This document shows, piece after piece, positions 16,569 to 32,000 of a stretch of 32,000 bases of DNA; position 1 is the stretch's first letter, and every line of letters starts with the position of its first letter. Source of the stretch: an uncultured bacterium (GTDB lineage: Bacteria; GCA-001730085); assembly GCA_964565945.1 (NCBI GenBank), contig CAZMGY010000021.1, forward strand, positions 30,001-62,000. Reading direction: 5' to 3'. The notes beneath the pieces are model-generated. The model was not told where the DNA came from. It did not search any database and was given only the letters and a program-made list of their open reading frames with translations. The translations under genes were made by a program, and so were the position numbers.

Positions 16569-17400
16569 CTACAAACTAGTATTTTCAAAGTTAACTGCTA
16601 GTATCTTTTTTAAATCTTCTTTCACAGTATTAGTGATATGTTCATTATCGTTTAAAGACTTGCATAAAATCTTAAGTTCTTTTTTTTGATCAGCATAATC
16701 ATCCGATATTGAAAATTTACTTATAGGGCTTCCTGTTTTTTGAGCTATTAAGCAATATAGTAACAATGAGGTTGTGTTATATCCACGAGCACTGCCAAAA
16801 ACATCCCCTAGAGATATGAATCGAGATTCAAGCCCTGAAACATTTTGTGGATCAAAAGGCTTAGAATAAGCATTTTCAAAAATCTTTCTATAATTAACAT
16901 TTCACCGAATGGTTTTTGACCTATAAGAAAATCATAATATTCATCTTGAGTATATTTTTTAGGGGTTTCAATTTCATTAATCTTTTTACATTCTTCTAAA
17001 AAATCAAGTGGGCTTTCTTTATTTTCTAAAATAATTTTTAAGCCCTTTGCATAATCAAAATCTAAATCCAGATTTGTTTTAAAAATCTTAAAAGCTGACT
17101 TTAATCTACCTTCTTTTAATTCTTTGTCTAATTTTTTTTGTAGCAAGTTTTTTGAATATTCCTGTGTGATTTTATTTATTCCTTTTTTAAATTTAAAATA
17201 TAAGAATAATAATATCGCTAAAGATACAGCCCAAATTAAAAAGTCTAATGTTCGAATAAAACTTAGAATGCCATCAAAATCTTCATATATTAGAAAAAAA
17301 CTTGCTACAAAAAAAACGAAACAATAGAACTAACTATTCCTAGTTGAAGTCCCTGATTCCAATACAAATATTCTTTTTCTTGTTGCTTATTATTACTCAT
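16569..17400 (-). pseudogene. AT-rich membrane-anchored hypothetical gene disrupted by at least two frameshifts
   Basis: The ATG at 17400 opens a 31-codon frame that stops just after a T8 run (A8 at 17309-17316 on the plus strand). One extra T would fuse it to the frame of track ORF 16808..17146. A second shift near 16810-16890 would join that to track ORF 16569..16766, whose upstream extension (FENAYSKPFDPQNVSGLESRFISLGDVFGSARGYNTT) reads as protein-like. Confidence 0.5.
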
Positions 17401-17585: not shown

Positions 17586-17662
17586 CGCGGGGTGGAGCAG
17601 ACTGGAAGCTCGTTGGGCTCATAACCCAAAGGTCGAGGGTTCGAATCCCTCCCCCGCTACCA
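17586..17662 (+). tRNA. initiator tRNA-Met (anticodon CAT), CCA encoded
   Basis: I folded the cloverleaf by hand: acceptor CGCGGGG/CCCCGCT with position 1:72 unpaired, D arm GAGC-AGACTGGAA-GCTC, anticodon arm TTGGG-CTCATAA-CCCAA with the three G:C pairs typical of initiators, T arm GAGGG-TTCGAAT-CCCTC. It is close to E. coli tRNA-fMet. Confidence 0.9.
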
Positions 17663-19310
17663 ACTCTATAGACGGCTGGCTAGAATAATTGTCATTGGCA
17701 ACTAATCTGGCGAGCCCTTTTTTTATGTCTGCGTTTTTCATAGGATTCTCCTGTGAGGCTATGCTTAAAATACCGGCCAAAGAGCCGTGAAGATCAATTG
17801 ATAGATCATCCTGCCCAGCTTTTGGGGTGAGGGTGATTTTCTCGATCAGCCCCCTTAAAATCAGCGCAGCTTCCCCTCTGTTTTCTTCTTGGTCTAAAGA
17901 TGCGCGTAAATCACTGATTTGCCTGCGATAGCGCTCAGCCATGGCAGGGTGAAGCATAGGCGCGGATTTTGGCGTGGCTTCGAGCAAGGTTTCCAACTCT
18001 TTGAGGCGCTCTGAGGCTCTCTCCAGATCATCTTTTATCAAATCCACGGCTACACCGTCTTTGATGGCCTGGATGATGTTCTCGCGCTCCTTAGCGAGTT
18101 TAGCAGCCTCTGCGCGGTAGCCCTTTAAGCTCTGATCATGCTGGCTTTGCAGCTTATTAAAGTGCTTCGTATATTCCGCGCAAAACACCTTCAAGAGATC
18201 ATCTCTCATGAGATGGGTTTGTAAGGCTCCGAGCACCAGAGCCTCGATGCGCTCACGTTTGATGCTCTTTTTATTGGCGCACACGCTAGAGCCTTTATTG
18301 CGGGATTGTGAGCAGCCATAGCGCTCAGAATTGATCTTGGCATAGCCACCGCCGCATATTCCGCATTTTAGTAGCCCAGAGAGCAGATAATTGGGGCGGT
18401 TATTGCGGTGCAGCCCCTTAAGGCTGGTATCAAGGGTCTTTTGACGGGATTTGGCAGCATCCCAAAGCTCCTGATCAACAATCCGTAAATCAGGCACATC
18501 TTGCCTGATCCAATCCGCCTCATCGTTTAGGCGGGTAACGCGCTTGCCCGTAGCTGGGTCTTTGATAAAATGCTGGCGGTTCCAGATTAATTCCCCAATA
18601 TAAAGATGGTTATTTAAGATGCCGGTTCCGCGCCTGCGATTACCATTGATGGTCGATTGCCCCCAGGCCTTGCCTGAGGGGGCAGGGATGCCGTCTTTGT
18701 TCAGCGCATCGGCAATTGCCTTGGGAGATTTATTTTTAAGGGCGTATTCTTCGAATATGCGCTTAACGATTTTGGCTTAGATTTCGTTGATCTCCCGATC
18801 ACCGCGTATGGCCTCGCCCTCAGAGTTAAATTGCTTCACGACTTTATAGCCGTAAGCAATGCCGCCTCCAGATTTCCCTTTTTCAACGCGCCCGCGAAGC
18901 CCGCGCCGCGTTTTATCTGCAAGGTCTTTCAGGCACATAGCGTTCATCGTGCCTTTAAGGCCGATATGCAATGTTGAGATTTCACCTTCGGACAGAGTGA
19001 TGATTTTAACGCCAGCAAATTCCATGCGCTTATAGATACCGGCAATATCTTCCTGATCACGGGACAGGCGATCCAGCGCCTCGCAGATTAGAATATCAAA
19101 CTCACCGTTCATGGCAGCCGTTAGTAGCGATTGAATACCAGGGCGCATAAGTGATGCGCCTGATATTCCTGCATCGCTATAGCAGTTTCCTAAATCCCAG
19201 CCTTCGGCTTTGGCTTTTTCTGACGCGAGGCGGATTTGATCTTCAATCGAAGCATCGCTTTGAAGATCAGAGCTATATCTGGCATAGATGCAGGCGCGTA
19301 ATTTTTTCAT
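17619..19310 (-). pseudogene. large serine recombinase interrupted by a single in-frame TAA (18777-18779)
   Basis: Track ORFs 18777..19310 (resolvase catalytic domain, ACIYARYSSDLQ...) and 17619..18497 (Cys-rich zinc-ribbon region plus coiled coil) are in the same frame. I translated the 93 codons between them by hand (AKIVKRIFEEYALKNKSPKAIADALNKDGIPAPSGKAWGQSTINGN...) and found no other stop. Together they make a 563-codon LSR. Confidence 0.85.
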
Positions 19311-19501
19311 TATTCTTCACCTTCCAATTTCTGATTTGAGAGCTGATCAGCGCAAAGCTTGTAATCTTCTTCCGCACATGTGCGGGCTAAGAGCTTTACG
19401 AGATTAATAAGGGCTAGGTCATGATTATGACTCTCTTCCTTATGACTCTTCAAGCGCGTCTGCTTGTTTTTCCGTGCAGACTTATTCATCTGATCCCCCA
19501 T
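19310..19501 (-). CDS. small hypothetical protein (63 aa) coupled to the recombinase start
   Basis: Its stop overlaps the recombinase ATG (TAATG at 19308-19312). No family recognised. Confidence 0.4.
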   Translation of the reverse strand: MGDQMNKSARKNKQTRLKSHKEESHNHDLALINLVKLLARTCAEEDYKLCADQLSNQKLEGEE

Positions 19502-19776
19502 ATAAGGGGCGAGAACAAGATAGACCTCGCCCCCGAGAGGGAATTGGCGCGAGCAGTGGGGCTGTAAGATGCAAAGACAGTGGGTGATAATGCGCTGGCT
19601 TTGCGTAAATTCGCGCCAAATAAAAAGGGGAACATATTGCCTTCACAAAATGTACCCCTAGACTTCATGCTAGGCAGCAAAAGCTTAATAAATCCTAAAG
19701 ATGCACCGTCAAACATGGCTCTCACAGCCACATTCCAAGGAGTTATTAAGATATATTTAATGCTCATAGTGCTCAT
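19486..19776 (-). CDS. hypothetical ORF (96 aa) coupled to the coupling-protein stop
   Basis: The only support is the ATGA overlap with the upstream stop at 19773-19776. The sequence is unremarkable, contains a GC-rich hairpin (19506-19533), and competes with a plus-strand ORF (19580..19789). Confidence 0.25.
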   Translation of the reverse strand: MSTMSIKYILITPWNVAVRAMFDGASLGFIKLLLPSMKSRGTFCEGNMFPFLFGANLRKASALSPTVFASYSPTARANSLSGARSILFSPLIWGIR

Positions 19777-21437
19777 GCGTGCCCATTAAGGTATATGCGC
19801 ACAGGCAAGTTTTTTGGATAATTATTTTTGTGATAAGGGCTTTTACCTGCTAATTTTCGCCATGGCTCTATCTGGAAGTAAGCTAATTTCTCAGCTCTAA
19901 TCAAAGCTTTTCCATCAATAGCGATAAGCTGGTGGCTCATATCCATGCGCCCGATCTCATCTATGCTCATCACGGATGCGGCGCGCTCGTTAATACTTAA
20001 ACGCCATGGAGAAACCGGATTATTGGGATCACGGGTAAGAGAGCGGGCTTTCATGGTTTTATTACCAATGCGAGCGCTCCATGCTTTACGATCAAGTTCC
20101 CCGCGTATGCTCCAAGCCTGCATAAAGCTTGATTGCTCTTCGATCAGGCCTGCCATTTGCTGGCCATAAATCTCAATTGGTTGGCGGCGGCTTTGAAACA
20201 CCATCCATAGGCGCACGCCCTTGCCAGGCAATAGTGATAGCGCTTTGGAAAGATTAGGTAGCTTGCCGATATTACCCATCTCTTCTAAAAGCATCATGAT
20301 TGGTGAAGGCTTTGGCGCGGCGGCAATGGTTTCTAGTAACAATGTAGCGATCAGGCCAAGGGCAGAGCCATGGGTTTCTAATTTTGCTTCTGGCAAAATC
20401 ACATAGAGCGTGGTTTTGCCATCCAGAATATCGGATAATTTAAAATCAGAGCTGCTCATTGCCGCGCCCATAGGTGAGTGCGCGTCATAAATCTCAAGAG
20501 CGTTCATGGCGTTATCTCTAAATGCGCCATAGGTCTTGATATATTCAGATCGCAACATCTCTGCTAAGCCATTGCCGTAATCTTGAAGTAATCCGTGCAG
20601 CCAATCGCTTGAGCGCATCTCAAAGGCAATGGCTTTTTGTTTATTGCTTCCAGCCCAGATAAGTTTGCGCAAAGTTGGCAGGGTGCATTGATCAGGCATA
20701 AACACAGCCATATATAAAAGGAATGTAATGATTAGCCTGCGCCCACCATTACGGAAGAACATACCATCGCCCATATCATTAGGCCTTTCTGCAATGAGCT
20801 GGAAGGCAATAGAGCGCGCAAGATCATGCAAGTCCTTGCCTCCGTTCTTCATCACATCAACAACCAAGATGCGCAGTGGATTAAAATTCACGCCCTTAAT
20901 GCCAAGAACATTAAAGGGATTAAAGATCAAAACATTTTGACCTCGCGCTTTACGGTACTTGGCGGTGATAGCTGTTAGCTCGCCCTTAACATCGGTAACA
21001 AACATCGAGCCTCCAAACCAGTGCAAAAGCGCAGGAATAATTACCGAGATTGTTTTACCGGTGCGTGAAGGCGCATAGGTCAGCATGTGACCATTGCCAG
21101 TTAGGTATGGATCGTAAAAGAGCGGGGCATCTGCCATGCTGCCAACATAAAAACCACTGCGGTTTTTAATTAGCTCTTTTATGAAGCTGTCTTGGATTTC
21201 GGCCAGTCTTGCATGACCATAGCTATCAGATAGCTTGCGACTTTCATGCAATAGATTGATCTGATGCGCGGTATGTAATGACAGGGAAAGAAACTCCATT
21301 ATCTTTTTGATAAAGATAAGCAGCGCCAAGCCCATCACTGCCACGCCCCAAACATAACCGCCATTCATAGCGGCCAGCCACAATCCTGCAAGAAGCAGGA
21401 TTAGTGGCATGAGCAGGAAAATGAGGGCGGTAAACAT
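19773..21437 (-). CDS. type IV coupling protein (VirD4/TraG/TraD family)
   Basis: Two N-terminal TM helices, GHARLAE, Walker A LTYAPSRTGKTISVIIPALL, VTDVKGEL, a Walker B-like MMLLEEMGNIG, and VRLWMVFQSRRQPIEIYG. This motif order is typical of VirD4/TraG. Confidence 0.85.
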   Translation of the reverse strand: MFTALIFLLMPLILLLAGLWLAAMNGGYVWGVAVMGLALLIFIKKIMEFLSLSLHTAHQINLLHESRKLSDSYGHARLAEIQDSFIKELIKNRSGFYVGSMADAPLFYDPYLTGNGHMLTYAPSRTGKTISVIIPALLHWFGGSMFVTDVKGELTAITAKYRKARGQNVLIFNPFNVLGIKGVNFNPLRILVVDVMKNGGKDLHDLARSIAFQLIAERPNDMGDGMFFRNGGRRLIITFLLYMAVFMPDQCTLPTLRKLIWAGSNKQKAIAFEMRSSDWLHGLLQDYGNGLAEMLRSEYIKTYGAFRDNAMNALEIYDAHSPMGAAMSSSDFKLSDILDGKTTLYVILPEAKLETHGSALGLIATLLLETIAAAPKPSPIMMLLEEMGNIGKLPNLSKALSLLPGKGVRLWMVFQSRRQPIEIYGQQMAGLIEEQSSFMQAWSIRGELDRKAWSARIGNKTMKARSLTRDPNNPVSPWRLSINERAASVMSIDEIGRMDMSHQLIAIDGKALIRAEKLAYFQIEPWRKLAGKSPYHKNNYPKNLPVRIYLNGHA

Positions 21438-21441
21438 GATT

Positions 21442-22476
21442 TTATTTACCTATATGCAGGACTTGTAGGCCGGATATAGAAACGCCTAAGCTCTGGAAGA
21501 AGTTTTGCAGATCAGCATCAAGGTTATTGGTAGAGACAATTTCAAGATCAGCCAGACCCTTTAAGTGACCAGTTTCGTAATTGCCCACCCAAAACACAAA
21601 GAGCTTGGAGTTTGTTTTTGCTTTGGTGGCATTAAGGCTTTCTAATGTTTGCCCGTAATTGGCGGTGTTTATACCGTCTGTTACAACAATCGTGATATTA
21701 GGAAGATCAGTAACAAAGCCCTGAATATCAGATTCAAAGCCAGTTTCTATGGCCTTGTAGAGCGCAGTAGCACCGCCAGCTTTGAGCGGTTTATTCAAAT
21801 GATAAATCATATAGGGGCAGCTTTTTAGATAACTCATACCATTATCCGAAAGCCGCACAACATCATTGCTAAAGGTAAATATCTGGCAGCGCGCAGAGCC
21901 TGGAAGTTTTTTCATAAAATCCCTTGTGGCGCTTACCACAGCGCCCAAATGCCAATCCATTGAGCCGCTAGTATCCAGCGCAATGGCAACAGGCATGTGC
22001 AATGAGCCAAGGGATTTCATTGGCGTGTAGTTAAAGCTCAGGGGCTTAAAATCTGCGTCAAACACAGCGATATCTTTAAGCTTTGGGCTGATGACTTTAT
22101 TGTTCGCACCATAAAACAGCACACCTGCATCGCGGCCTTTCTGCTTATCACTGACACTGGCAATGCTAAGGTGGGTTACATCGCCGCCAGCAATGATGAT
22201 TACCCCCGCTTTTTTATGAACGCCAAAGGCGGTAAAGCTTCTTCCATCTTTAAGCTTTAGATCAGAGCGACGAACTTTAAGAGCCAGCAAATCATCATGG
22301 GCAGCAGATAGATCAATCTGAAAGCTAACCGTGCCAAGCGTTTTTGTTAGCACATCAGGATCACTAATCTCGATAGAAGTTGTTTGTAACTCCTGCGGTT
22401 CGATAACTTCTATCGCAAAAGCTGGATTTACGAAGAAACAAAAAACTAAAACAAACAATCGTTTGAGCTTAATCAT
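21442..22476 (-). CDS. exported von Willebrand factor type A (vWA) domain protein
   Basis: Signal peptide MIKLKRLFVLVFCFFVNPAFA. Complete MIDAS pattern (ALDTSGSM ... GGATAL ... VVTDG) in the C-terminal half. The N-terminal ~150 aa are unassigned. Confidence 0.8.
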   Translation of the reverse strand: MIKLKRLFVLVFCFFVNPAFAIEVIEPQELQTTSIEISDPDVLTKTLGTVSFQIDLSAAHDDLLALKVRRSDLKLKDGRSFTAFGVHKKAGVIIIAGGDVTHLSIASVSDKQKGRDAGVLFYGANNKVISPKLKDIAVFDADFKPLSFNYTPMKSLGSLHMPVAIALDTSGSMDWHLGAVVSATRDFMKKLPGSARCQIFTFSNDVVRLSDNGMSYLKSCPYMIYHLNKPLKAGGATALYKAIETGFESDIQGFVTDLPNITIVVTDGINTANYGQTLESLNATKAKTNSKLFVFWVGNYETGHLKGLADLEIVSTNNLDADLQNFFQSLGVSISGLQVLHIGK

Positions 22477-23168
22477 TTTGAGACCTCCAATTTAAGTCCG
22501 CCCCGAAGAGCAAATTTACTGCGCTCAATATCCATCAAACTCATGGGAATGGAGCGCTGCGCCGCTGCATTAAAACTCGGTTCTAGGAATTCTTCCCAGA
22601 CGCGCTTTTGATGAGGTGATGCCCAGTAAAAAGCTATAGAGTGAATACTCTTGTATGTAGATAGAGCCTGATTGATATCTCCCTCCAATGGCGGAGGCTG
22701 GGGCAGGGTGATTTGCGTTGTATCACTGCACGGTATTGGCGTATGGATCAGCGAAGAAAATACAATCACATGAGCGCTGGTAAATCCCTGGCGCTCAAGC
22801 GCATTGATATTGCTGGCCAGTTCCATGAATGCCCCAGGCAGATTATTACAGTTCTCTGGATTGCTCTTAATCGCATTAACCAGCTCAAGTGCGCGTTCGG
22901 GCTTGCGCTTGAGATCACTGGGAACACCCGACCAGATGGTGCGGCCAATCGAAGTGCTAATCACATCGATATGCGCACGGGCAAACTCACGCTTACGGGT
23001 TAGCCCTTTTATATGCGAGAGCAAGACCAGCTTGTATTGATCAGCATCTATTGGATCAATCAGCACGCCGCTATCATCAATGATGAGCTGGATTGTGGTG
23101 TGCGTTCCTCTAGCCATTACTGGCATTGAGAAGCAAAGGATAATTAGTAATGCAATTTTGGTTTTCAT
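22473..23168 (-). CDS. exported hypothetical protein (232 aa)
   Basis: I chose the ATG at 23168 (AAGGAGGA upstream, ATGA overlap with the preceding stop) over the track start at 23282. Signal peptide MKTKIALLIILCFSMPVMA. IQLIIDDSGV and VIVFSS strands suggest a degenerate vWA/Rossmann-like fold (inference only). Confidence 0.65.
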   Translation of the reverse strand: MKTKIALLIILCFSMPVMARGTHTTIQLIIDDSGVLIDPIDADQYKLVLLSHIKGLTRKREFARAHIDVISTSIGRTIWSGVPSDLKRKPERALELVNAIKSNPENCNNLPGAFMELASNINALERQGFTSAHVIVFSSLIHTPIPCSDTTQITLPQPPPLEGDINQALSTYKSIHSIAFYWASPHQKRVWEEFLEPSFNAAAQRSIPMSLMDIERSKFALRGGLKLEVSK

Positions 23169-23791
23169 TGTTCTGATCCTCCTTTTAAGGCAAGTTTGGC
23201 GCTGGGAACCATATGCGCGGTTGCCAGACCCATGGCAGCATTGGTGATGATTAGTGCTACGCTCATAATCAGCATCGGCCAAAAACTCGCCTCACCACCT
23301 GAAAAGCCAGGAATGGGAGAAGGTGCGGTTTCTTCCTTGATGCGTATATATAATGTTGCGAACTCAGTGGAGATCACGAAGAAATAGAGCAGGGCAAACA
23401 CAGCGGTGATTACAATATGCAGCCCGTCTTTAAAGAATTTACCGCCAGCTTCGAATATCTCGCCGTGGCGCTCTAATAACTGCCCGAATAAAAATACCGG
23501 CGTAGCAACAGCGGCCAAGCCGAGCACGCCATTGATCAGCGTGCCTACAGAGATGTTGGAAAGTGCGGAGATATCCGGCAGGCCAAGAACATCAAGCACA
23601 AACAGGTCAGAGCCAACCGTATTGACCAATGCGTAGTTACTTGTATGTAACAGCCAGTTACCTGCTTCCGCCGAGAAGATCAGGGATAATTTGCCAAATA
23701 GCCATAACTTGTCGCTTGGCTCCAAGGGGTGCTGGTTTGAGCCGTGTTCAGGCGGCTGCCAGCTCTCGAAATTGTCGTTACTATCACTCAT
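23165..23791 (-). CDS. three-TM inner-membrane protein (208 aa), first gene of the module
   Basis: ATG at 23791 with GGAGG 5 nt upstream (the track uses a TTG 12 nt further up). Three long hydrophobic segments. No family recognised. Confidence 0.65.
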   Translation of the reverse strand: MSDSNDNFESWQPPEHGSNQHPLEPSDKLWLFGKLSLIFSAEAGNWLLHTSNYALVNTVGSDLFVLDVLGLPDISALSNISVGTLINGVLGLAAVATPVFLFGQLLERHGEIFEAGGKFFKDGLHIVITAVFALLYFFVISTEFATLYIRIKEETAPSPIPGFSGGEASFWPMLIMSVALIITNAAMGLATAHMVPSAKLALKGGSEQ

Positions 23792-23837
23792 AAAAGCCTC
23801 CAACCCCTTCTAGTAAGGGGAGTTGTTTGAAATAGAG

Positions 23838-23851
23838 GCTTTGCGCAAAGC
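23838..23851. promoter_or_regulatory. 14-bp perfect palindrome upstream of the membrane/vWA/T4CP module
   Basis: GCTTTGCGCAAAGC lies 47-60 nt upstream of the ATG at 23791. A CCCCTT/AAGGGG hairpin lies at 23804-23820. A regulatory role is inferred from position only. Confidence 0.35.
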
Positions 23852-23995: not shown

Positions 23996-24943
23996 ATGGC
24001 TAATTTAAGGAAGAACTCAGCAAAATCTGAATTTTGGAAAAAGCATGTGCAGGAGTGGAAGAAGGGGAGGCTAATTCAATCTGAATATTGTATAAAAAAT
24101 AAAATATCAGAATCTGCATTTTCCAAATGGAAAACTAAATTATTCCCAAAACAAATTGGAACGCGGCGCTTAAAACAGCTTAAAAATAAATATTATAAAA
24201 ACTCGAAATTGTCTAACCAGCAAATCGAAAATTTATTTGTAGGTTTTTTATGTGATGTGCCAGCGAAAGTTGCTGCTAAAGGGAGTGATATAAGTGAGGC
24301 TACTGCTTATAAATACTATAACAAAATACGATATGATTTAGTTAATGGAGCGCTAAATTATCCGCTTTTATTTTTTGGTTCAGGGATGCTTTTGATTTTA
24401 GGGGCACCACCAGATGTACATGAGTTAGCACGCAAATTTAAACCCATAAGCCCAAGTATAAAAGGCAGAGAAAAACATATATATTACGCGCTTTGTAATG
24501 TTTTGATTTGTCATTCTTTTCGCAAATGGACAGTTTCCGAGATATATTATTTTTGGTTTCAGGGGTTACGGGCATATTTTTTAAAGCACTATGCTAAAAG
24601 TCATGGTCTAAATGAAAGTGATTGGAATATGGCTATGGCAGTTCAGATGCAAAATAAAATTTCAATTGCAAAAATGACAGTAACAATATGGCTGGATTGG
24701 ATAAAAGAGGGAGGAAATACTACCCCTTTTTCTGAGGATGTATGGGAAGCTATTCGATATCAACATGACTATCATGCTGATGCTAAATCCTGGATAAAAC
24801 CTATGCTCCATGATTTAAAATGGGTCGTAGAGAGAAATAATAATTTAAAAAGAAGTACATACTGGGATTTCTTTAAACCTAGCAAGTCAGGTATTCTTGA
24901 AGTAAATAGAAGGATTCATGAATACCTAGAAAGAACAAACTAG
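23996..24943 (+). CDS. hypothetical protein with transposase-type HTH motifs (315 aa)
   Basis: The N-terminus FWKKHVQEWKKGRLIQSEYCIKNKISESAFSKWKTKL resembles IS66 Orf1 / IS3-type HTH accessory proteins. A second HTH-like stretch is GSDISEATAYKYYNKIRYDL. No DDE domain recognised. Very AT-rich. Confidence 0.55.
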   Translation: MANLRKNSAKSEFWKKHVQEWKKGRLIQSEYCIKNKISESAFSKWKTKLFPKQIGTRRLKQLKNKYYKNSKLSNQQIENLFVGFLCDVPAKVAAKGSDISEATAYKYYNKIRYDLVNGALNYPLLFFGSGMLLILGAPPDVHELARKFKPISPSIKGREKHIYYALCNVLICHSFRKWTVSEIYYFWFQGLRAYFLKHYAKSHGLNESDWNMAMAVQMQNKISIAKMTVTIWLDWIKEGGNTTPFSEDVWEAIRYQHDYHADAKSWIKPMLHDLKWVVERNNNLKRSTYWDFFKPSKSGILEVNRRIHEYLERTN

Positions 24944-26232
24944 ATTCTGAGCGCTATCTTTTGCAGCCATTTATACTTCTGTTCAAGGCTAGGACCATCC
25001 CCATATCGGGGACGGTCATATCTATGTCCCATGAGTGCAGCCTGTACTTTGTCGGGCGGCTCTACTGCCGTCAGCCGATCCTCAAAACTGTGACGCAGAC
25101 TGTATAGGCTATGATCTTCACTTGGAAGTAAATTGTTATTACGCAGAAACTTATTCAGATTTCCTGATAGCTGATCAGGTTTGCGGTAATATCGCTCAAA
25201 TCCTTTTGGTAGATTTTGAAACGCATAGAGTGATGATCCCACCAATGGCATGTAGCGTTCACTGTAGGGTGTTTTAATTTCCTTGTCTTTTTCTGCATGA
25301 ATATATATGTAGGGGATATCTGTATCCAGCCTAATATCTCCTGCCTTAAAATTCAGGCCAACTAGCTCAGAGGGGCGAGCACCTAAATCGGCCATAGCGA
25401 ATAGAAATAACTGACACTCTCGTTCCAACCCTTTCAGGTTGTCCATGTTTAATAATACATCTCGAATATGGTTCACCTTAAAAGGTTGTCTTTTGCTCTT
25501 TATTTCTTTGAACCTTATACGGCTGAATAATTCATCGACGCTGATGTCTGCGCCGTGATTATCTTTTGCAAAGAACAGGAGTGTTCGTAGATGCGTAAAA
25601 TCCTTGTTTGGTGAATTGGGAGATAGGCTTTCTGATTCGACGCGTTCTTGCCACCATGACCGAAATGCTAATATATCGTTTCTGGTGATTTGCTCTACTG
25701 ATAGGTCGCCACATATTTTAATAAAATTACTGACAGCTTTTACTTTAGGGTTTTTCCATTTTCTTAGTTGGGATTCATTTTTTCTTGTATGATTTGGTTT
25801 TTCAAACTCGATATATGAATCTAATGCTTCGCTTATAGGAAATTTAGGTTTTTCTTTTCCTCCTAGTAAGGCAGTAACGTTTTCATCGGTCTCGGGTATA
25901 TCCGATTGTAGCGCATCTAAACGATCAATAATCTTGCTGACATCAGAACCTGCAAGCTCTGAAATAGATTTGTACGAGAAATTGAATGTTTGGGCTGTAT
26001 GAACGGCTTTGCTATATTCATAGTCCTTATCCATCGGTATATTTTTTACGATGTTATTCCAGTAATTATCTAATTCCTCTTTTAATACTGATGCACGCTG
26101 AATGGCAACAGATTCTGATGTCGTCTTCAAGCTTACCTGTATGATCTCCTGGCCATCATAATATTTCAGATACCGTTTTGGTATTCTGTGTTTAAAGTGG
26201 AACCAGCCTTTTATTTTTATAATATGGCGCAT
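24940..26232 (-). CDS. tyrosine-type site-specific integrase
   Basis: Catalytic-domain pattern: GARPSELVGL (Arg), KTPYSERYMPL, LYSLRHSF (H-x-x-R), LMGH, and a terminal Tyr region. The N-terminal GWFHFKHRIPKRY arm-binding-like segment is common in island integrases. Confidence 0.85.
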   Translation of the reverse strand: MRHIIKIKGWFHFKHRIPKRYLKYYDGQEIIQVSLKTTSESVAIQRASVLKEELDNYWNNIVKNIPMDKDYEYSKAVHTAQTFNFSYKSISELAGSDVSKIIDRLDALQSDIPETDENVTALLGGKEKPKFPISEALDSYIEFEKPNHTRKNESQLRKWKNPKVKAVSNFIKICGDLSVEQITRNDILAFRSWWQERVESESLSPNSPNKDFTHLRTLLFFAKDNHGADISVDELFSRIRFKEIKSKRQPFKVNHIRDVLLNMDNLKGLERECQLFLFAMADLGARPSELVGLNFKAGDIRLDTDIPYIYIHAEKDKEIKTPYSERYMPLVGSSLYAFQNLPKGFERYYRKPDQLSGNLNKFLRNNNLLPSEDHSLYSLRHSFEDRLTAVEPPDKVQAALMGHRYDRPRYGDGPSLEQKYKWLQKIALRI

Positions 26233-26445: not shown

Positions 26446-26805
26446 TTAGGGTAAATAATTTGTGTGTGAAACGTGTGAAAAAATGTGTGAAATATTTTCT
26501 ATGTTTTTTCTGCTAGAAACTTCTGTTGATAAGTTTTTATGGCCTATGCTTTTAGCAATGTCCAGAAGCTCATGCTTCGATTTATATTCTGTTAGTTCAT
26601 TATGCAACCGTTCAAACAATGGAAGATATCTATCACCGTAAACAGCAATGATATTTGCAAGGTGGTTATAAGCTTCCTGTAATTCAGTAAACGTTATTTT
26701 TGAGCGTTTAATTCTAACTTTTGAAAAAACATTTGCCTTATTTGATGATAAGACGGGGCTGCATTGTTTCATGCACTTTTCAATATTCCAATCTAGTGTA
26801 GGCAT
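26446..26805 (-). CDS. hypothetical protein (119 aa) coupled to the AlpA-family gene
   Basis: ATGA overlap with the upstream stop at 26803-26807. No family recognised. Confidence 0.45.
   Translation of the reverse strand: MPTLDWNIEKCMKQCSPVLSSNKANVFSKVRIKRSKITFTELQEAYNHLANIIAVYGDRYLPLFERLHNELTEYKSKHELLDIAKSIGHKNLSTEVSSRKNIENISHIFSHVSHTNYLP
26461..26490. repeat. phased TGTGTGA repeats (candidate arm-type sites, right set)
   Basis: TGTGTGA at 26463-26469, cGTGTGA at 26472-26478 and TGTGTGA at 26484-26490, in the same orientation as the left set with 9-12 nt spacing. They overlap the last codons of the 119-aa ORF. Confidence 0.5.
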
Positions 26806-27098
26806 CAGCTTGTTTCCTTGCCACTATCCTGGCGATACGTATGCGGGCTTTTGATCCATTCATGAATATCTTTGAGATAAAAAGCCTTACGCTTAGCTTT
26901 CTTGTGTGAAGATAGCATTCTTGGCCTGGGGAATGTACCGCGTGCAATGCGCCTTCTTATCTCTTGCCTTGATATACCACAGAGCCTGACTGCAAGCTTT
27001 ATTGGGATTAAGGCATTAGATTGGATCATTAGCGCGGCAGTAACTTCTGCCTCGAATGTTTTCTTTAAGCTAAATGATTTAAGTAAAAGCGTTTTCAT
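26805..27098 (-). CDS. AlpA-family (MerR-type) HTH regulator / excisionase-like protein
   Basis: IKLAVRLCGISRQEIRRRIARGTFPRPRML...YLKDIHEWIKSP matches the AlpA/Vis pattern. I chose the ATG at 27098 (AAAGGA upstream) over the track start at 27152. Confidence 0.75.
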   Translation of the reverse strand: MKTLLLKSFSLKKTFEAEVTAALMIQSNALIPIKLAVRLCGISRQEIRRRIARGTFPRPRMLSSHKKAKRKAFYLKDIHEWIKSPHTYRQDSGKETS

Positions 27099-27334
27099 AG
27101 GTGATTCCTTTCTACGATGTGCAGCTATTGCCACATATCTGCGTTTACTCACCCATCCTTAATGATTGTGACGATGCCAGAAGCCCTCACAGTCTGATCT
27201 GCCTGTGACAGAACATATCGCCATATATCCATTACACACCATAATTACTTAATATTTTATTAACAACTCCCTTAAAAGCTACAGTGACAGCCATCTTTGT
27301 TTGCTGCAAAGCCGCATTGATCTGTGCGGCGGCA

Positions 27335-29032: not shown

Positions 29033-29629
29033 TTGAAGCTCACTGATCTTGCAATTATATCCGCTGGACACCCATTCAGAGGGAAAATACTGGAAAAATC
29101 CGGTAGCGGTATCCGTGCCGTGCAGATGAAAGACATCTCTATTGATCAGGGTGTTTGTTGGGAGAGCGTTATCGAAACGGAGCTTTCTGGCAAAAAAAAA
29201 CCTGCTTGGCTGATGAATGGGGATATCCTTTTCGCAGCCAGAGGCGCACGTAATTATGCCGTACTGGTAGATCATATTGTAGGGAAAGTCGTTAGTGCTC
29301 CTCATTTCTATATTCTCCGTGTGAACGAGCAATCGCTTTTGCCGGAATTTCTGGTCTGGCAGCTCAATCAAAAACCCCTGCAAAACTATTTCGACAGGGC
29401 AGCGCAAGGGTCGTTTACCAAGAGCATTAAACGCTCAATTTTAGAATGTGCTGAAATCACAGTACCGCCACTAGATAACCAAAAGCAAATCGTAGGCTTG
29501 CACATGACATTGATGCAAGAAAGAAAGCTCTATTCTGAATTGACCAGAAATGCGGATAAGTTAATGAATTCTATTGCCAGCAAACTTGCGGCAGGTAAAA
29601 CTCTACAGTTAAAAGGAATAAAAATATGA
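29033..29629 (+). CDS. hsdS: half-size Type I restriction-modification specificity subunit (single target-recognition domain plus conserved helix)
   Basis: HsdS-like pattern: KLTDLAIISAGHPFRG, GDILFAARG, FLVWQLNQKPLQNYFDRAAQGSFTKSIKRSIL, ITVPPLDNQKQIV, then a coiled-coil tail. TTG start with GAAGGA upstream. ATGA overlap with hsdM at 29626-29629. Confidence 0.7.
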   Translation: MKLTDLAIISAGHPFRGKILEKSGSGIRAVQMKDISIDQGVCWESVIETELSGKKKPAWLMNGDILFAARGARNYAVLVDHIVGKVVSAPHFYILRVNEQSLLPEFLVWQLNQKPLQNYFDRAAQGSFTKSIKRSILECAEITVPPLDNQKQIVGLHMTLMQERKLYSELTRNADKLMNSIASKLAAGKTLQLKGIKI

Positions 29630-31149
29630 ACACACCAATAAGCCAAGATGCTATCAACAAAGCCTTATGGGGGGCATGCGATACATTCCGTGGCACGGTC
29701 AGCGCTGACACATACAAAGACTTTATCCTAACCATGTTGTTCCTGAAATACATCTCTGATGTTTGGCAGGATCACTATGACAAATACAAAGAAGAGCATG
29801 GTGACGAGCCAGAGCTTATTCATGAAATGATGAAGAATGAGCGCTTTGTTCTTCCCGATGGATCAAGCTTTTATACCCTTTATGAAAAACGCCATGAACC
29901 CGGCAATGGTGAGCGTATCGACCAAGCTCTTCACGCATTGGAAGAGGCTAACGGCACTAAGCTTCGTGATGCATCAAAATCCGTGTTTCAGGATATCAGT
30001 TTTAACACTGATAAGCTCGGTGAAGAAAAACAAAAAAACACCATTCTTCGCCACTTGCTGGAAGATTTTGCCAAAGATGAATTAAACCTTCGCCCCAGTC
30101 GTGTTGGATCACTCGATGTGATCGGTAACGCCTACGAATATCTGATTAAGCACTTTGCCGCAGGTGGTGGGCAAAAAGCAGGAGAATTCTATACCCCGCC
30201 CGAAGTATCTGACCTGATTGCAGAATTGCTAGACCCACAAGAAGACGACACAATTTCTGATCCGGCTTGTGGTTCTGGTTCCTTGCTCATGAAATGTGGT
30301 CGTAAAATTAAAAAGCGTTTTAACAGCAAAAAATACGCACTCTACGGGCAAGAAGCTATTGGCTCTACTTGGTCTCTGGCGAAAATGAATATGTTCCTGC
30401 ATGGCGAAGACAATCACAAAATAGAGTGGGGAGATACAATCAGAAACCCTAAGCTACTGAATAAGCATGGCGGCTTGATGCATTTTGATATTGTGACGGC
30501 TAATCCTCCATTCAGTCTCGATAAATGGGGGCATGATGAAGCTGATCATGATCCGTTTGGACGTTTTCGTCGTGGTATTCCTCCAAAGACCAAAGGTGAT
30601 TATGCCTTTATTTCGCATATGATCGAAACTATGGAGCCGACTACAGGGCGTATGGGCGTTGTTGTTCCGCATGGTGTTTTGTTTCGTGGTAGCTCAGAAG
30701 GAAAAATCCGCAAACAATTGATAGAAGAAAATTTGCTTGATACGGTGATAGGACTTCCTGAAAAGCTCTTTTACGGTACAGGGATACCGGCGGCGATTCT
30801 GATCTTTAAGAAAAATAAGGCGGATAGCAATGTCCTGTTCATTGATGCCAGCCGTGAATGTAAGACGGGTAAAAACCAAAACCTACTCACGCTTGATAAT
30901 ATTAAAAAAATAGTCAAGACATATAAGGTGCGTAAAAGCTTTGATAAATATTCGTATTTGGCCAATTTTGAGGAGATTGAGGAAAACGACTTTAACCTTA
31001 ATATCCCGCGTTATGTCGATACTTTTGAAGAGGAAGAAGAAATTGACCTATTGGCAGTGCGTAAAGAGCGTGAAGAACTAAAAACTCAACTCGTCGAACT
31101 GGAAACGGAAATGGATGGTTATCTCAAGGAGCTGGGTTATGGTTCCTGA
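29626..31149 (+). CDS. hsdM: Type I restriction-modification N6-adenine DNA methyltransferase subunit
   Basis: HsdM N-terminal domain (LWGACDTFRG...YKDFILTMLFLKYISD), motif I DPACGSGS, motif IV TANPPFS, and a C-terminal coiled coil. Confidence 0.9.
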   Translation: MNTPISQDAINKALWGACDTFRGTVSADTYKDFILTMLFLKYISDVWQDHYDKYKEEHGDEPELIHEMMKNERFVLPDGSSFYTLYEKRHEPGNGERIDQALHALEEANGTKLRDASKSVFQDISFNTDKLGEEKQKNTILRHLLEDFAKDELNLRPSRVGSLDVIGNAYEYLIKHFAAGGGQKAGEFYTPPEVSDLIAELLDPQEDDTISDPACGSGSLLMKCGRKIKKRFNSKKYALYGQEAIGSTWSLAKMNMFLHGEDNHKIEWGDTIRNPKLLNKHGGLMHFDIVTANPPFSLDKWGHDEADHDPFGRFRRGIPPKTKGDYAFISHMIETMEPTTGRMGVVVPHGVLFRGSSEGKIRKQLIEENLLDTVIGLPEKLFYGTGIPAAILIFKKNKADSNVLFIDASRECKTGKNQNLLTLDNIKKIVKTYKVRKSFDKYSYLANFEEIEENDFNLNIPRYVDTFEEEEEIDLLAVRKEREELKTQLVELETEMDGYLKELGYGS

Positions 31150-32000
31150 TGGGTGGAAAGAAGAAAATCTTGGAACTCTTTTTGAGTTTAAAAATGGCGC
31201 TAATACTGAGGCAGCCAATTACGGTTCTGGAATTAAGTTTGTTAATGTGATGGACGTGTTTGGTAATCACTTTATTACTAGCGAGAAAATTCGTGAAAGA
31301 GTTAATCTGCCTGAAAAAAAGATTAATTTATATTTGTTAAAAATGGGCGACGTATTATTTAATAGAACGTCAGAGGTTTTCGACGAAATTGCTCTAACTG
31401 CTGTTTATATGGATACTTCACCAGCAATATTTGGTGGCTTCGTTATTAGGGGGCGACCTAAGGCTAACGAACTTGACTTTAAATTTTGTATTTATTGTTT
31501 TTCATCTTATAGAGTCCGTAAGGAATCTATAAGAAGAGGGCAAGGGGTAATACGATCGAACATTGGTCAAAAAGACCTACAGTATGTTCCGTTGTTAGTT
31601 CCTCCTATTATAGAACAAAAGAAAATAGCCAAAATATTATTGACTTGGGATCGAGCGATTGAGGTAACAGAAAAACTAATCAGCAATAGTCAGCAACAAA
31701 AAAAGTCCCTCATGCAACAACTCATCACTGGCAAAAAACGCCTTCTGGGATTTAGTGATGAATGGGAAAAGATTCGATTAAAGCCTCTTTTAGAGGAGGG
31801 AAAGGCTAGAAATAAAGATAGTTCAATACAACGAGTATTAAGTGTTACTAATCATAGCGGTTTTGTATTACCAGAAGATCAATTTTCAAAACGTGTGGCG
31901 AGCAGTAATGTCAGTAACTATAAAATAGTTAAACGTGGAGAATTTGCATATAACCCATCTCGTATAAACGTTGGTTCATTTGCGCGTCTTGATGATTATG
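31139..32000 (+). CDS. hsdS: Type I restriction-modification specificity subunit (3' end runs off the right edge)
   Basis: Absent from the track because it has no stop in the window. ATG at 31139 overlaps the hsdM end by 11 nt. MVPDGWKEENLGTLFEF..., central conserved region VPLLVPPIIEQKKIAKILLTWDRAIEVTEKLI...LMQQLITGKKRL, then a second TRD begins (EWEKIRLKPLL...). Confidence 0.85.
   Translation, partial: MVPDGWKEENLGTLFEFKNGANTEAANYGSGIKFVNVMDVFGNHFITSEKIRERVNLPEKKINLYLLKMGDVLFNRTSEVFDEIALTAVYMDTSPAIFGGFVIRGRPKANELDFKFCIYCFSSYRVRKESIRRGQGVIRSNIGQKDLQYVPLLVPPIIEQKKIAKILLTWDRAIEVTEKLISNSQQQKKSLMQQLITGKKRLLGFSDEWEKIRLKPLLEEGKARNKDSSIQRVLSVTNHSGFVLPEDQFSKRVASSNVSNYKIVKRGEFAYNPSRINVGSFARLDDY

Follow-up and report, generated by a model that had tools for sequence, protein, structure and literature searches.

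A type IV coupling protein encoded behind a membrane protein and two exported vWA-fold proteins: the probable coupling module of an undescribed family of mobilizable elements at an initiator tRNA gene

Integrative mobilizable elements (IMEs) are thought to outnumber integrative and conjugative elements (ICEs), yet are poorly characterized, particularly outside Firmicutes and clinical Proteobacteria. IMEs carrying a relaxase together with their own coupling protein (strategy I), or extra mating-pore subunits as in SGI1, are recognized classes (PMC5704250), and a mobilizable element is operationally defined by a relaxase without VirB4 (PMC3158045). The serine-recombinase IMEs known at the time of review insert in, and disrupt, dispensable protein-coding genes (PMC5704250), and serine integrases make up <1% of the genomic islands delimited by attachment (att) sites in one recent survey (bioRxiv 10.64898/2026.01.13.699239). 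The locus analyzed here lies in a 32,000-nt stretch of DNA from an uncultured bacterium (contig CAZMGY010000021.1, positions 30,001 to 62,000; hereafter the window) and comprises four coupled genes, the last of which encodes a VirD4/TraG-type type IV coupling protein (T4CP). From comparison with related loci, we consider it probable that this quartet serves for coupling in a so far undescribed family of IMEs that insert in the initiator tRNA gene, and that the window holds one end of such an element. Its interesting parts are the three envelope proteins encoded ahead of the T4CP (the trio) and the arrangement of serine recombinase, attP and tRNA-fMet.

The family shares with strategy I IMEs (Guedon et al. 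2017, PMC5704250) a site-specific recombinase, a MobC-type accessory protein and relaxase, and an own VirD4-type T4CP, as well as the absence of mating-pore genes and a presumed dependence on a helper type IV secretion system (T4SS). It differs from them in residing in proteobacterial environmental hosts, in having a membrane protein and two periplasmic von Willebrand factor A (vWA)-fold proteins always encoded ahead of the T4CP, and in a serine recombinase that targets a tRNA gene. Judged by its gene content, the family falls within the operational definition of an IME, with the strategy of bringing both its own relaxase and its own coupling protein. SGI1-type IMEs, in which TraN, TraH and TraG reshape the helper pore, are likewise mobilizable islands with envelope proteins of their own beyond those for DNA processing, and SGI1 is the best analogy for the possible role of the trio; its proteins, however, are recognizable homologs of subunits of the helper T4SS, whereas the trio matches no Tra/Trb family. 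SGI1, moreover, integrates by means of a tyrosine integrase and is not known to encode a T4CP. Tn4451-type IMEs (with TndX) similarly employ a large serine recombinase for integration and excision and are mobilizable elements with a relaxase, but they are Firmicute elements without T4CP or tRNA target, and with unrelated gene content. In our literature search, no description was found of a T4CP combined with vWA proteins, or of an island combining a serine recombinase with tRNA-Met.

The quartet occupies the minus strand from 23791 to 19773 as four open reading frames (ORFs) of 208, 231, 344 and 554 aa, in the order of a protein with three to four transmembrane (TM) helices, an exported 231-aa protein, an exported vWA protein and the VirD4-type T4CP. 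In two of them a metal ion-dependent adhesion site (MIDAS), intact or degenerate, can be traced.

23165–23791, minus strand: inner-membrane protein of 208 aa with three strong and one weak hydrophobic helices, from hydrophobicity; without a known family
22473–23168, minus strand: exported protein of 231 aa, predicted vWA fold with a degenerate MIDAS (DDSGV) and invariant C107 and C147, from predicted structure and homolog alignment
21442–22476, minus strand: exported protein of 344 aa with a signal peptide, a beta-rich N-domain (about residues 62–155) and a vWA domain with intact MIDAS, from Pfam, alignment and fold
19773–21437, minus strand: VirD4/TraG-type T4CP of 554 aa with two N-terminal TM helices, from Pfam, hydrophobicity and homolog alignment

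Within the quartet, stop and start codons overlap as ATGA at 23165–23168 and 22473–22476, and a spacer of only 4 nt (21438–21441) separates the vWA gene from the T4CP gene. Downstream of the T4CP gene, a further ATGA (19773–19776) leads into a 96-aa ORF, followed by a 63-aa ORF and, across a TAATG (19308–19312), the serine recombinase gene. Upstream of the first gene, a 14-bp perfect palindrome, GCTTTGCGCAAAGC, is found at 23838–23851. A preliminary description of the window had listed the four coupled minus-strand genes with these overlaps, the gap, the chain of small ORFs and the palindrome, and all its coordinates were borne out. As the same gene order was found in every related locus examined and all four genes are under purifying selection (ratio of nonsynonymous to synonymous substitution rates, dN/dS, 0.05–0.2), comparison of the sequences indicates that the arrangement is not due to chance.

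The T4CP assignment is supported by matches to PF02534 (T4SS-DNA_transf; E 7e-54, 183.8 bits, gathering cutoff 20.1) and TraG-D_C (E 6e-15, 55.6 bits, cutoff 22). The two N-terminal TM helices and the Walker A motif APSRTGKT noted previously were both recovered, the former as hydrophobic helices at residues 4–22 and 32–50, the latter with P123, R125, T126, G127 and K128 invariant among 30 homologs, as is E386. The Walker B motif reads LLEEMG, with EE in place of DE in the main clade. With its TM helices at the N-terminus, both Walker motifs, and PF02534 and TraG-D_C domains, the protein resembles the canonical VirD4, TraG and TrwB known from conjugative plasmids and ICEs; unlike these, it belongs to a separate clade and is never found beside VirB-type genes. 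The clade is small and mostly metagenomic (65 clusters), the best identity of the window T4CP to any T4CP encoded on 72,556 plasmids is ≤30%, and NCBIfam returned only sub-threshold matches, far under every curated cutoff. The nearest solved structure by sequence is Cag5/Cagβ. In terms of genetic association, no mating-pair-formation T4SS (VirB4 etc.) was found within ±10 kb of about 20 loci; an association with a relaxase is present at the level of the element family, with MobC and a PF03432 relaxase encoded across attP and at attR, as described below.

Among the trio, the 344-aa protein is the most readily classified. Its match to PF00092 (vWA; E 1.5e-7, 32.2 bits, cutoff 23.8), a signal-peptide-like N-terminus and the invariance of the MIDAS residues D168, S170, S172, T237 and D267 in 35 homologs agree with the signal peptide and intact MIDAS attributed to it in the preliminary description. 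By both sequence and fold, the vWA domain matches the integrin I-domain and ArnB, and its fold matches include the PilB minor pilin as well as integrin. The N-terminus of the 231-aa protein is signal-peptide-like too. Its AlphaFold model (pLDDT 91) retrieved almost exclusively vWA-fold proteins or vWA-containing complexes among the Foldseek top 50 (TM-score about 0.5), including TFIIH p44, Ku80, VWF A1 and integrin I domains. The modeled structure is thus that of a vWA fold with a degenerate MIDAS, as had been guessed from the DDSG motif of this exported protein. The motif DDSGV, in which the second MIDAS serine is missing, is present in 46 of 46 homologs, and more distant relatives keep DxSGS and have a C-terminal TM anchor. 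The fold is seen only via structure prediction. Sequence-profile searches gave nothing: a PDB search with the family profile returned no match, and hhalign detected no similarity when the 231-aa family was set against the vWA family of the 344-aa protein (probability 1%). The 231-aa family is tight (73 clusters at ≥43% identity), its profile finds only 123 representatives in 1.84 billion proteins, and no homolog was present on any of the 72,556 plasmids.

Neither Pfam nor NCBIfam has a family for the 208-aa TM protein or the 231-aa protein, and for the 344-aa protein they return vWA alone; the possibility, raised earlier, that the three accessory proteins would turn out to be known Tra/Trb components was accordingly not borne out by these two collections. 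PADLOC profiles gave no match for nine proteins at E ≤ 0.01. The three families are linked by gene fusions: P0205 unites the 231-aa and 344-aa (vWA) families, and P0261 and P0219 each combine the TM family with that of the 231-aa protein. These fusions, along with the overlapping stop and start codons, argue for a single membrane-anchored periplasmic complex of the trio, made in fixed ratio with the T4CP. The trio is tied specifically to this T4CP clade, and it is without a described counterpart.

The quartet is followed, on its downstream side, by the integration machinery and its target.

17619–19310, minus strand: large serine recombinase gene of 563 codons with Resolvase and Zn-ribbon domains and, in intact orthologs, a Recombinase domain, from Pfam and ortholog alignment
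17650–17663, minus strand: attL core, 14-mer TTGGTAGCGGGGG(A/C), common to every element copy and equal to the reverse complement of the tRNA 3′ end
17586–17662, plus strand: tRNA-fMet (initiator-type tRNA-Met), the integration target, with its last ~14 nt derived from the element, from ARAGORN and Rfam

The tRNA has the sequence CGCGGGG...CTCATAACCC, which we take to be of the initiator type by comparison with E. coli tRNA-fMet, and the junction between the element and the host tRNA body lies directly past the 14-mer core. In the AT-rich region just upstream of the tRNA gene, a 30-nt inverted repeat was also observed, with arms at 17124–17153 and 17295–17324 that are 90% complementary and 141 nt apart. 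In the window recombinase, Pfam detected Resolvase and Zn_ribbon_recom, the Recombinase domain being detected only in intact orthologs. The frame is colinear with that of the intact orthologs (561–563 aa) and is broken by one TAA (18777–18779), where relatives have Gln, encoded by CAA in the nearest ones. Because of this codon, the window copy is probably immobilized in the chromosome, unless the TAA is a sequencing error. The recombinase of L023 (related loci are cited by number) contains an in-frame stop as well, at another position. A recurrent programmed stop, considered as gene callers had skipped the gene in L020 and L022, was ruled out, since both of these ORFs are intact.

The last 44 nt of the recombinase gene are antisense to the tRNA gene, and its stop codon is supplied by the complement of the anticodon loop. 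The same 44-nt overlap is found in L001/2, L004, L007, L009, L015, L020 and L022, with a 22-nt variant in L010 and L018. In this integrated form (attL form) the recombinase ends in ...VAGxGFEPxTFGL, where the tail GFEPxTFGL is antisense tRNA, while the attP form runs ~58 codons further; a tail of ~58 aa is thus swapped for 8–9 residues of antisense tRNA in the attL form. This C-terminal tail swap on integration may constitute a directionality switch. An attP located in the recombinase coding sequence, with a C-terminal tail swapped by integration in a tRNA gene, is also known from the myxophage Mx8, where attP lies within intP and integration alters the C-terminus of the integrase. IntP is a phage tyrosine recombinase, whereas the enzyme here is the large serine recombinase of a mobilizable island.

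When the 3′ ends of the recombinase genes were aligned, all elements were found to have TTGGTAGCGGGGGC in common, a sequence reverse-complementary to the tRNA 3′ end, after which they separate into two classes. In the attL form, the shared TTGGTAGCGGGGGC is followed by the tRNA body. In the attP form, the core is followed by T(CC/GG)(C/T)T(A/G)CCAACGCTATCT, an inverted repeat of the AGATGGCGTTGG on the other side of the core; the attP site, which lies inside the recombinase gene, accordingly consists of a AGATGGCGTTGG ... CCAACGCTATCT inverted repeat around a 14-mer core identical to the 3′ end of tRNA-fMet. Between attP and mobC follows a stretch of ~200 nt that is strongly conserved without periodicity and contains the inverted repeat AAGCGCG...CGCGCTT and then GCGC(A/G)(C/T)ATTCTAC, as read in L003, L006, L013, L014, L016, L023 and L027–L037. 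We regard this stretch as a candidate origin of transfer (oriT); it overlaps with what would nominally encode the C-terminal tail of the attP-form enzyme, and next to it are encoded a MobC/NikA-like protein and then a PF03432 relaxase. MobC and the relaxase are present in all six distinct attP-form genome loci and, within reach of the contigs, in none of about 11 attL-form loci. The closest relative of the window copy, L023 (T4CP 95% identical), is of the attP form and encodes MobC, the relaxase, AbiEii/DUF6088 and ArdA directly after the recombinase.

Additional attP forms and the reciprocal junctions were obtained from a scan of metagenomes with the attP pattern. The attR junctions (L027/L032, L030, L031, L033, L035 and L037) consist of an unrelated flank, often with a terminator-like hairpin at its end, followed by the 12-mer of the tRNA 3′ end, an arm of the inverted repeat, MobC and the relaxase, and have no recombinase upstream. 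In L037 and L030 this flank contains genes for RimP and NusA, on the opposite strand, matching the E. coli context of tRNA-fMet, which is metY-rimP-nusA. attP, attL and attR share the 14-mer core with the expected exchange of flanks. The three junction types are, at the sequence level, those predicted for a circular element that integrates site-specifically at the 3′ end of tRNA-fMet, which would make the relaxase a core gene of the element, placed at the far end in integrated copies. In the preliminary description no relaxase was seen, which is correct for the window; the element family, however, does have MobC and a PF03432 relaxase. The framing there of an "orphan", relaxase-independent T4CP is not supported: the MobC/relaxase pair lies just across attP and is brought to the opposite end by integration.

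Adjoining the relaxase, and mostly convergent with it, a gene for a giant cadherin-like/RTX calcium-binding protein of 1000–1900 aa was observed in at least six loci (L003, 15905–20038; L022, 1–2411; L034, 7498–10596; L037, 3691–8007; also L014 and L016). Its recurrence suggests that it belongs to the backbone of the element.

Only 14 loci, all in metagenome-assembled genomes (MAGs), were returned when 185,579 species genomes were scanned. The host bins were assigned to Alphaproteobacteria, to Methylococcaceae, Thiodiazotropha, Thiohalobacter, Steroidobacteraceae and a tubeworm endosymbiont, and to Accumulibacter; one Kiritimatiellae bin shares the same element with an alphaproteobacterial bin. 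The relatives are proteobacterial MAGs from marine or engineered systems, and in all the same gene order was seen in about 19 distinct loci from MAGs of Alpha-, Beta- (Accumulibacter) and Gammaproteobacteria. Wherever the contig permits, the order is fixed as TM protein, 231-aa protein, vWA protein, T4CP, small ORF(s) and large serine recombinase. More divergent variants are L021 (T4CP 39% identical), encoding a TM protein, an exported protein, a vWA protein, two small acidic proteins and the T4CP, and L034 (T4CP 25% identical), with an exported-like protein, a vWA protein, T4CP, recombinase, attP, MobC and relaxase. Ahead of its variant quartet, L021 has a SprT-like metalloprotease gene (1342–2061); it is without serine recombinase, and an IS110 is found nearby. 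Mating-pore families were absent from all of about 20 loci (as judged from precomputed Pfam tables for nine loci, from targeted searches of large ORFs in the flanks, and from 115 flank ORFs ≥170 aa), so that the quartet, contrary to one possibility raised previously, never sits in a T4SS cluster. Pfam/NCBIfam scans and the gene tables of the loci likewise gave no VirB4-type ATPase or mating-pore components, as would mark an ICE, and the combination of a relaxase and/or oriT with an absent T4SS holds at the family level. Families recurring in the flanks are tyrosine integrases (nine), HipA (five) and ArdA (three).

Three element copies (L014, L016 and L017) were found in one 1.2-Mb contig of the alphaproteobacterial MAG PRO23, which we take as indirect evidence of recent mobility. 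Just upstream of L016, a second, distant pair of T4CP and serine recombinase is encoded.

In the scheme that we favor, comparison of sequences across loci supports an element that integrates by means of its large serine recombinase, between attP inside the recombinase gene and the 3′ end of tRNA-fMet. Recombination would leave the T4CP module and the recombinase at one end (attL), as in the window, with the candidate oriT, MobC and relaxase ending up at the opposite one (attR), beside rimP-nusA. Beyond this we infer that, after excision, the relaxase would nick oriT, and the element's own T4CP would receive the relaxase–DNA complex and hand it to a T4SS that a conjugative element in the same cell provides. 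Together with the T4CP, the membrane protein and both periplasmic vWA-fold proteins would probably form an inner-membrane/periplasmic complex that docks the T4CP onto the foreign T4SS, or remodels the latter, and the MIDAS of the 344-aa protein may bind a component of the periplasmic channel. By analogy with IMEs that bring a coupling protein or pore subunits of their own, the trio is probably a docking or remodeling adaptor between the T4CP of the element and a foreign T4SS. The window copy would probably be locked in the chromosome, at the head of an island of >23 kb with defense cargo. Of the three options put forward in the preliminary description, a mobilizable element that brings its own coupling protein and borrows a helper T4SS is the best supported, by the absence of mating-pore genes in about 20 loci and the presence of MobC, a PF03432 relaxase and often ArdA.

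Several points weigh against this scheme. All relatives are MAG or metagenome contigs, and a helper T4SS has been identified in no host. The docking role of the trio is drawn from operon coupling, fusions and localization signals, and our literature search found no known T4SS with vWA components. Many loci carry a tyrosine integrase besides the serine recombinase. As for the window copy itself, its recombinase has a premature stop, and neither the window nor the adjoining 9 kb showed a relaxase, oriT or attR of its island.

Among the other explanations weighed, the one that survives best, although we consider it unlikely, is that the quartet is an exclusion or defense module riding on the island, in which a T4CP-like ATPase and periplasmic vWA proteins block incoming conjugative DNA or phage. 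The quartet does lie at a conserved island end, HipAB and AbiEii are encoded in related islands, and the window island carries defense cargo. A type I restriction-modification (RM) system starts at 29033, and a Logan contig (L025), which overlaps the window by 12.4 kb with five mismatches, extends a further 9 kb; the cargo from 29033 to 32000 and in L025 comprises a short HsdS-like ORF (198 aa), HsdM, HsdS, DUF4917, HsdR, a YgjP-like metalloprotease and a 1745-aa AAA_16 protein, of which the RM system, DUF4917 and the AAA_16 protein would fit such a role. No protein matched PADLOC, however, and the defense genes vary by locus, whereas the constant partners of the quartet are the recombinase, MobC, the relaxase and the candidate oriT; the recurrence of the anti-restriction protein ArdA is moreover what is expected for DNA that itself transfers. 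The option of an undescribed envelope module, proposed in the preliminary description, holds as regards a TM protein and two exported vWA-fold proteins, a set without Pfam, NCBIfam, PADLOC or plasmid match, but not as regards relaxase-independent transfer or defense, since the set is embedded in a relaxase-dependent backbone.

A second explanation, which we hold to be very unlikely, is self-sufficient transfer, with the T4CP, the membrane protein and the two vWA proteins, and possibly the giant adhesin, moving the relaxase-bound DNA of the ~15–20-kb island without a VirB4-type mating pore. It would agree with the lack of mating-pore genes in every locus, the homologous giant cadherin/RTX protein next to the relaxase in at least six loci, the restriction of the trio to one T4CP clade and the three copies in a single MAG contig. 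The module, on the other hand, has nothing like an outer-membrane channel, a VirB4-type ATPase or a pilin, and no adhesin is in view in the window. In Gram-negative bacteria, a relaxase-dependent route for single-stranded DNA is not known to function in the absence of a mating-pore apparatus. If true, the four proteins would make up an envelope machine not seen before, and self-sufficient transfer would represent a new, minimal kind of conjugation system rather than a hitch-hiker on helper T4SSs.

The trio could alternatively serve the giant adhesin, in its export, anchoring or Ca/Mg-dependent aggregation, and be merely co-transcribed with the T4CP. vWA domains are typical of adhesion, as in the PilB minor pilin and integrin matches, and the cadherin/RTX protein is a recurrent backbone gene; but the adhesin is encoded far from the trio and on the opposite strand, the window island is without one within 23 kb, and the trio is tied to the T4CP by stop/start overlaps and by an order that is fixed even in the variants with 25–39% identity, so that we give this reading equally little credence. 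Least probable of all is the decayed ICE remnant of the preliminary description, with T4SS and relaxase lost: the nonsense codon in the window recombinase, the lack of a relaxase in view and an L001 riddled with insertion sequence (IS) elements and a group II intron would suit it, but it is contradicted by the same T4SS-less layout in about 19 loci of three proteobacterial classes, the purifying selection on all four genes (dN/dS 0.05–0.2) and the intact MobC and relaxase of attP-form and attR-form copies.

Should the trio indeed plug the T4CP into unrelated T4SSs, this would bear on how helper specificity and range are set. With attP inside its own gene and an initiator tRNA as target, integration rewrites the C-terminus of the recombinase, a possible built-in directionality switch, and it is of further interest that a giant adhesin appears to belong to the backbone of a mobilizable element. 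For annotation, the locus illustrates that an "orphan" T4CP beside a tRNA gene can mark one end of an integrated element, the relaxase being tens of kb distant.

The quartet is flanked by an upstream control region and two small ORFs.

23804–23851, minus strand: upstream control region with the palindrome GCTTTGCGCAAAGC (23838–23851) and a hairpin CCCCTT-N-AAGGGG (23804–23820) directly 5′ of the ribosome-binding site
19486–19776, minus strand: 96-aa ORF, present in some loci only, dN/dS 0.47–0.95
19310–19501, minus strand: 63-aa ORF, kept in most loci, dN/dS 0.35–0.37

The palindrome CAAGCTTTGCGCAAAGCCTCT is kept ahead of the first gene in four loci (the window and the equivalents in L006, L009 and L019), and the stem of the hairpin preceding the ribosome-binding site covaries across related loci (CCCCTT/AAGGGG, GCCCTG/CAGGGC and CACCC/GGGTG). 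From this pattern, the palindrome is probably an operator, accompanied by an RNA or DNA hairpin. The product of the 63-aa ORF may be a recombination directionality or DNA-binding factor. The 96-aa ORF is doubtful as a real gene because of its patchy occurrence among loci and weak constraint.

The window island starts at the tRNA gene (17586–17662) and extends rightwards past the quartet. Its extension past the window still shows no attR, so that the far end, as far as the available sequence reaches, either lies at a distance of >23 kb or has been lost. Neither the window nor the 9 kb beyond (L025) nor 10 kb upstream in other attL-form loci contained another copy of the 3′ half of the tRNA or of its 3′-terminal 12–14-mer. 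A tblastn search of the window with MobC, the relaxase and the recurrent flank families recovered only AlpA and a weak similarity of the divergent gene, both of which lie beyond the quartet.

23996–24943, plus strand: divergent gene of 315 aa with an N-terminal IS66-TnpA-like helix-turn-helix (E 4e-9), from a profile match
24940–26232, minus strand: tyrosine integrase of the DUF6538 type, from Pfam
26805–27152, minus strand: AlpA-like small helix-turn-helix protein, with orthologs of 66–80% identity in four related islands

A divergent gene is always present at this position in the relatives and belongs to several barely related families across loci; the 315-aa product is a candidate regulator. 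In most relatives, a tyrosine integrase (DUF6538 or P4 type) is likewise encoded upstream of the quartet, and the attP-form copies in megabase contigs (L003, L014 and L016) may have been integrated via this enzyme. A simple tandem-island model for the tyrosine integrase was set aside, as the genes for the integrase and AlpA are not oriented alike in all loci. In L001 (1714–10001), a decaying member of the family, the quartet is split by IS1595, IS66, other transposases and a group II intron reverse transcriptase.

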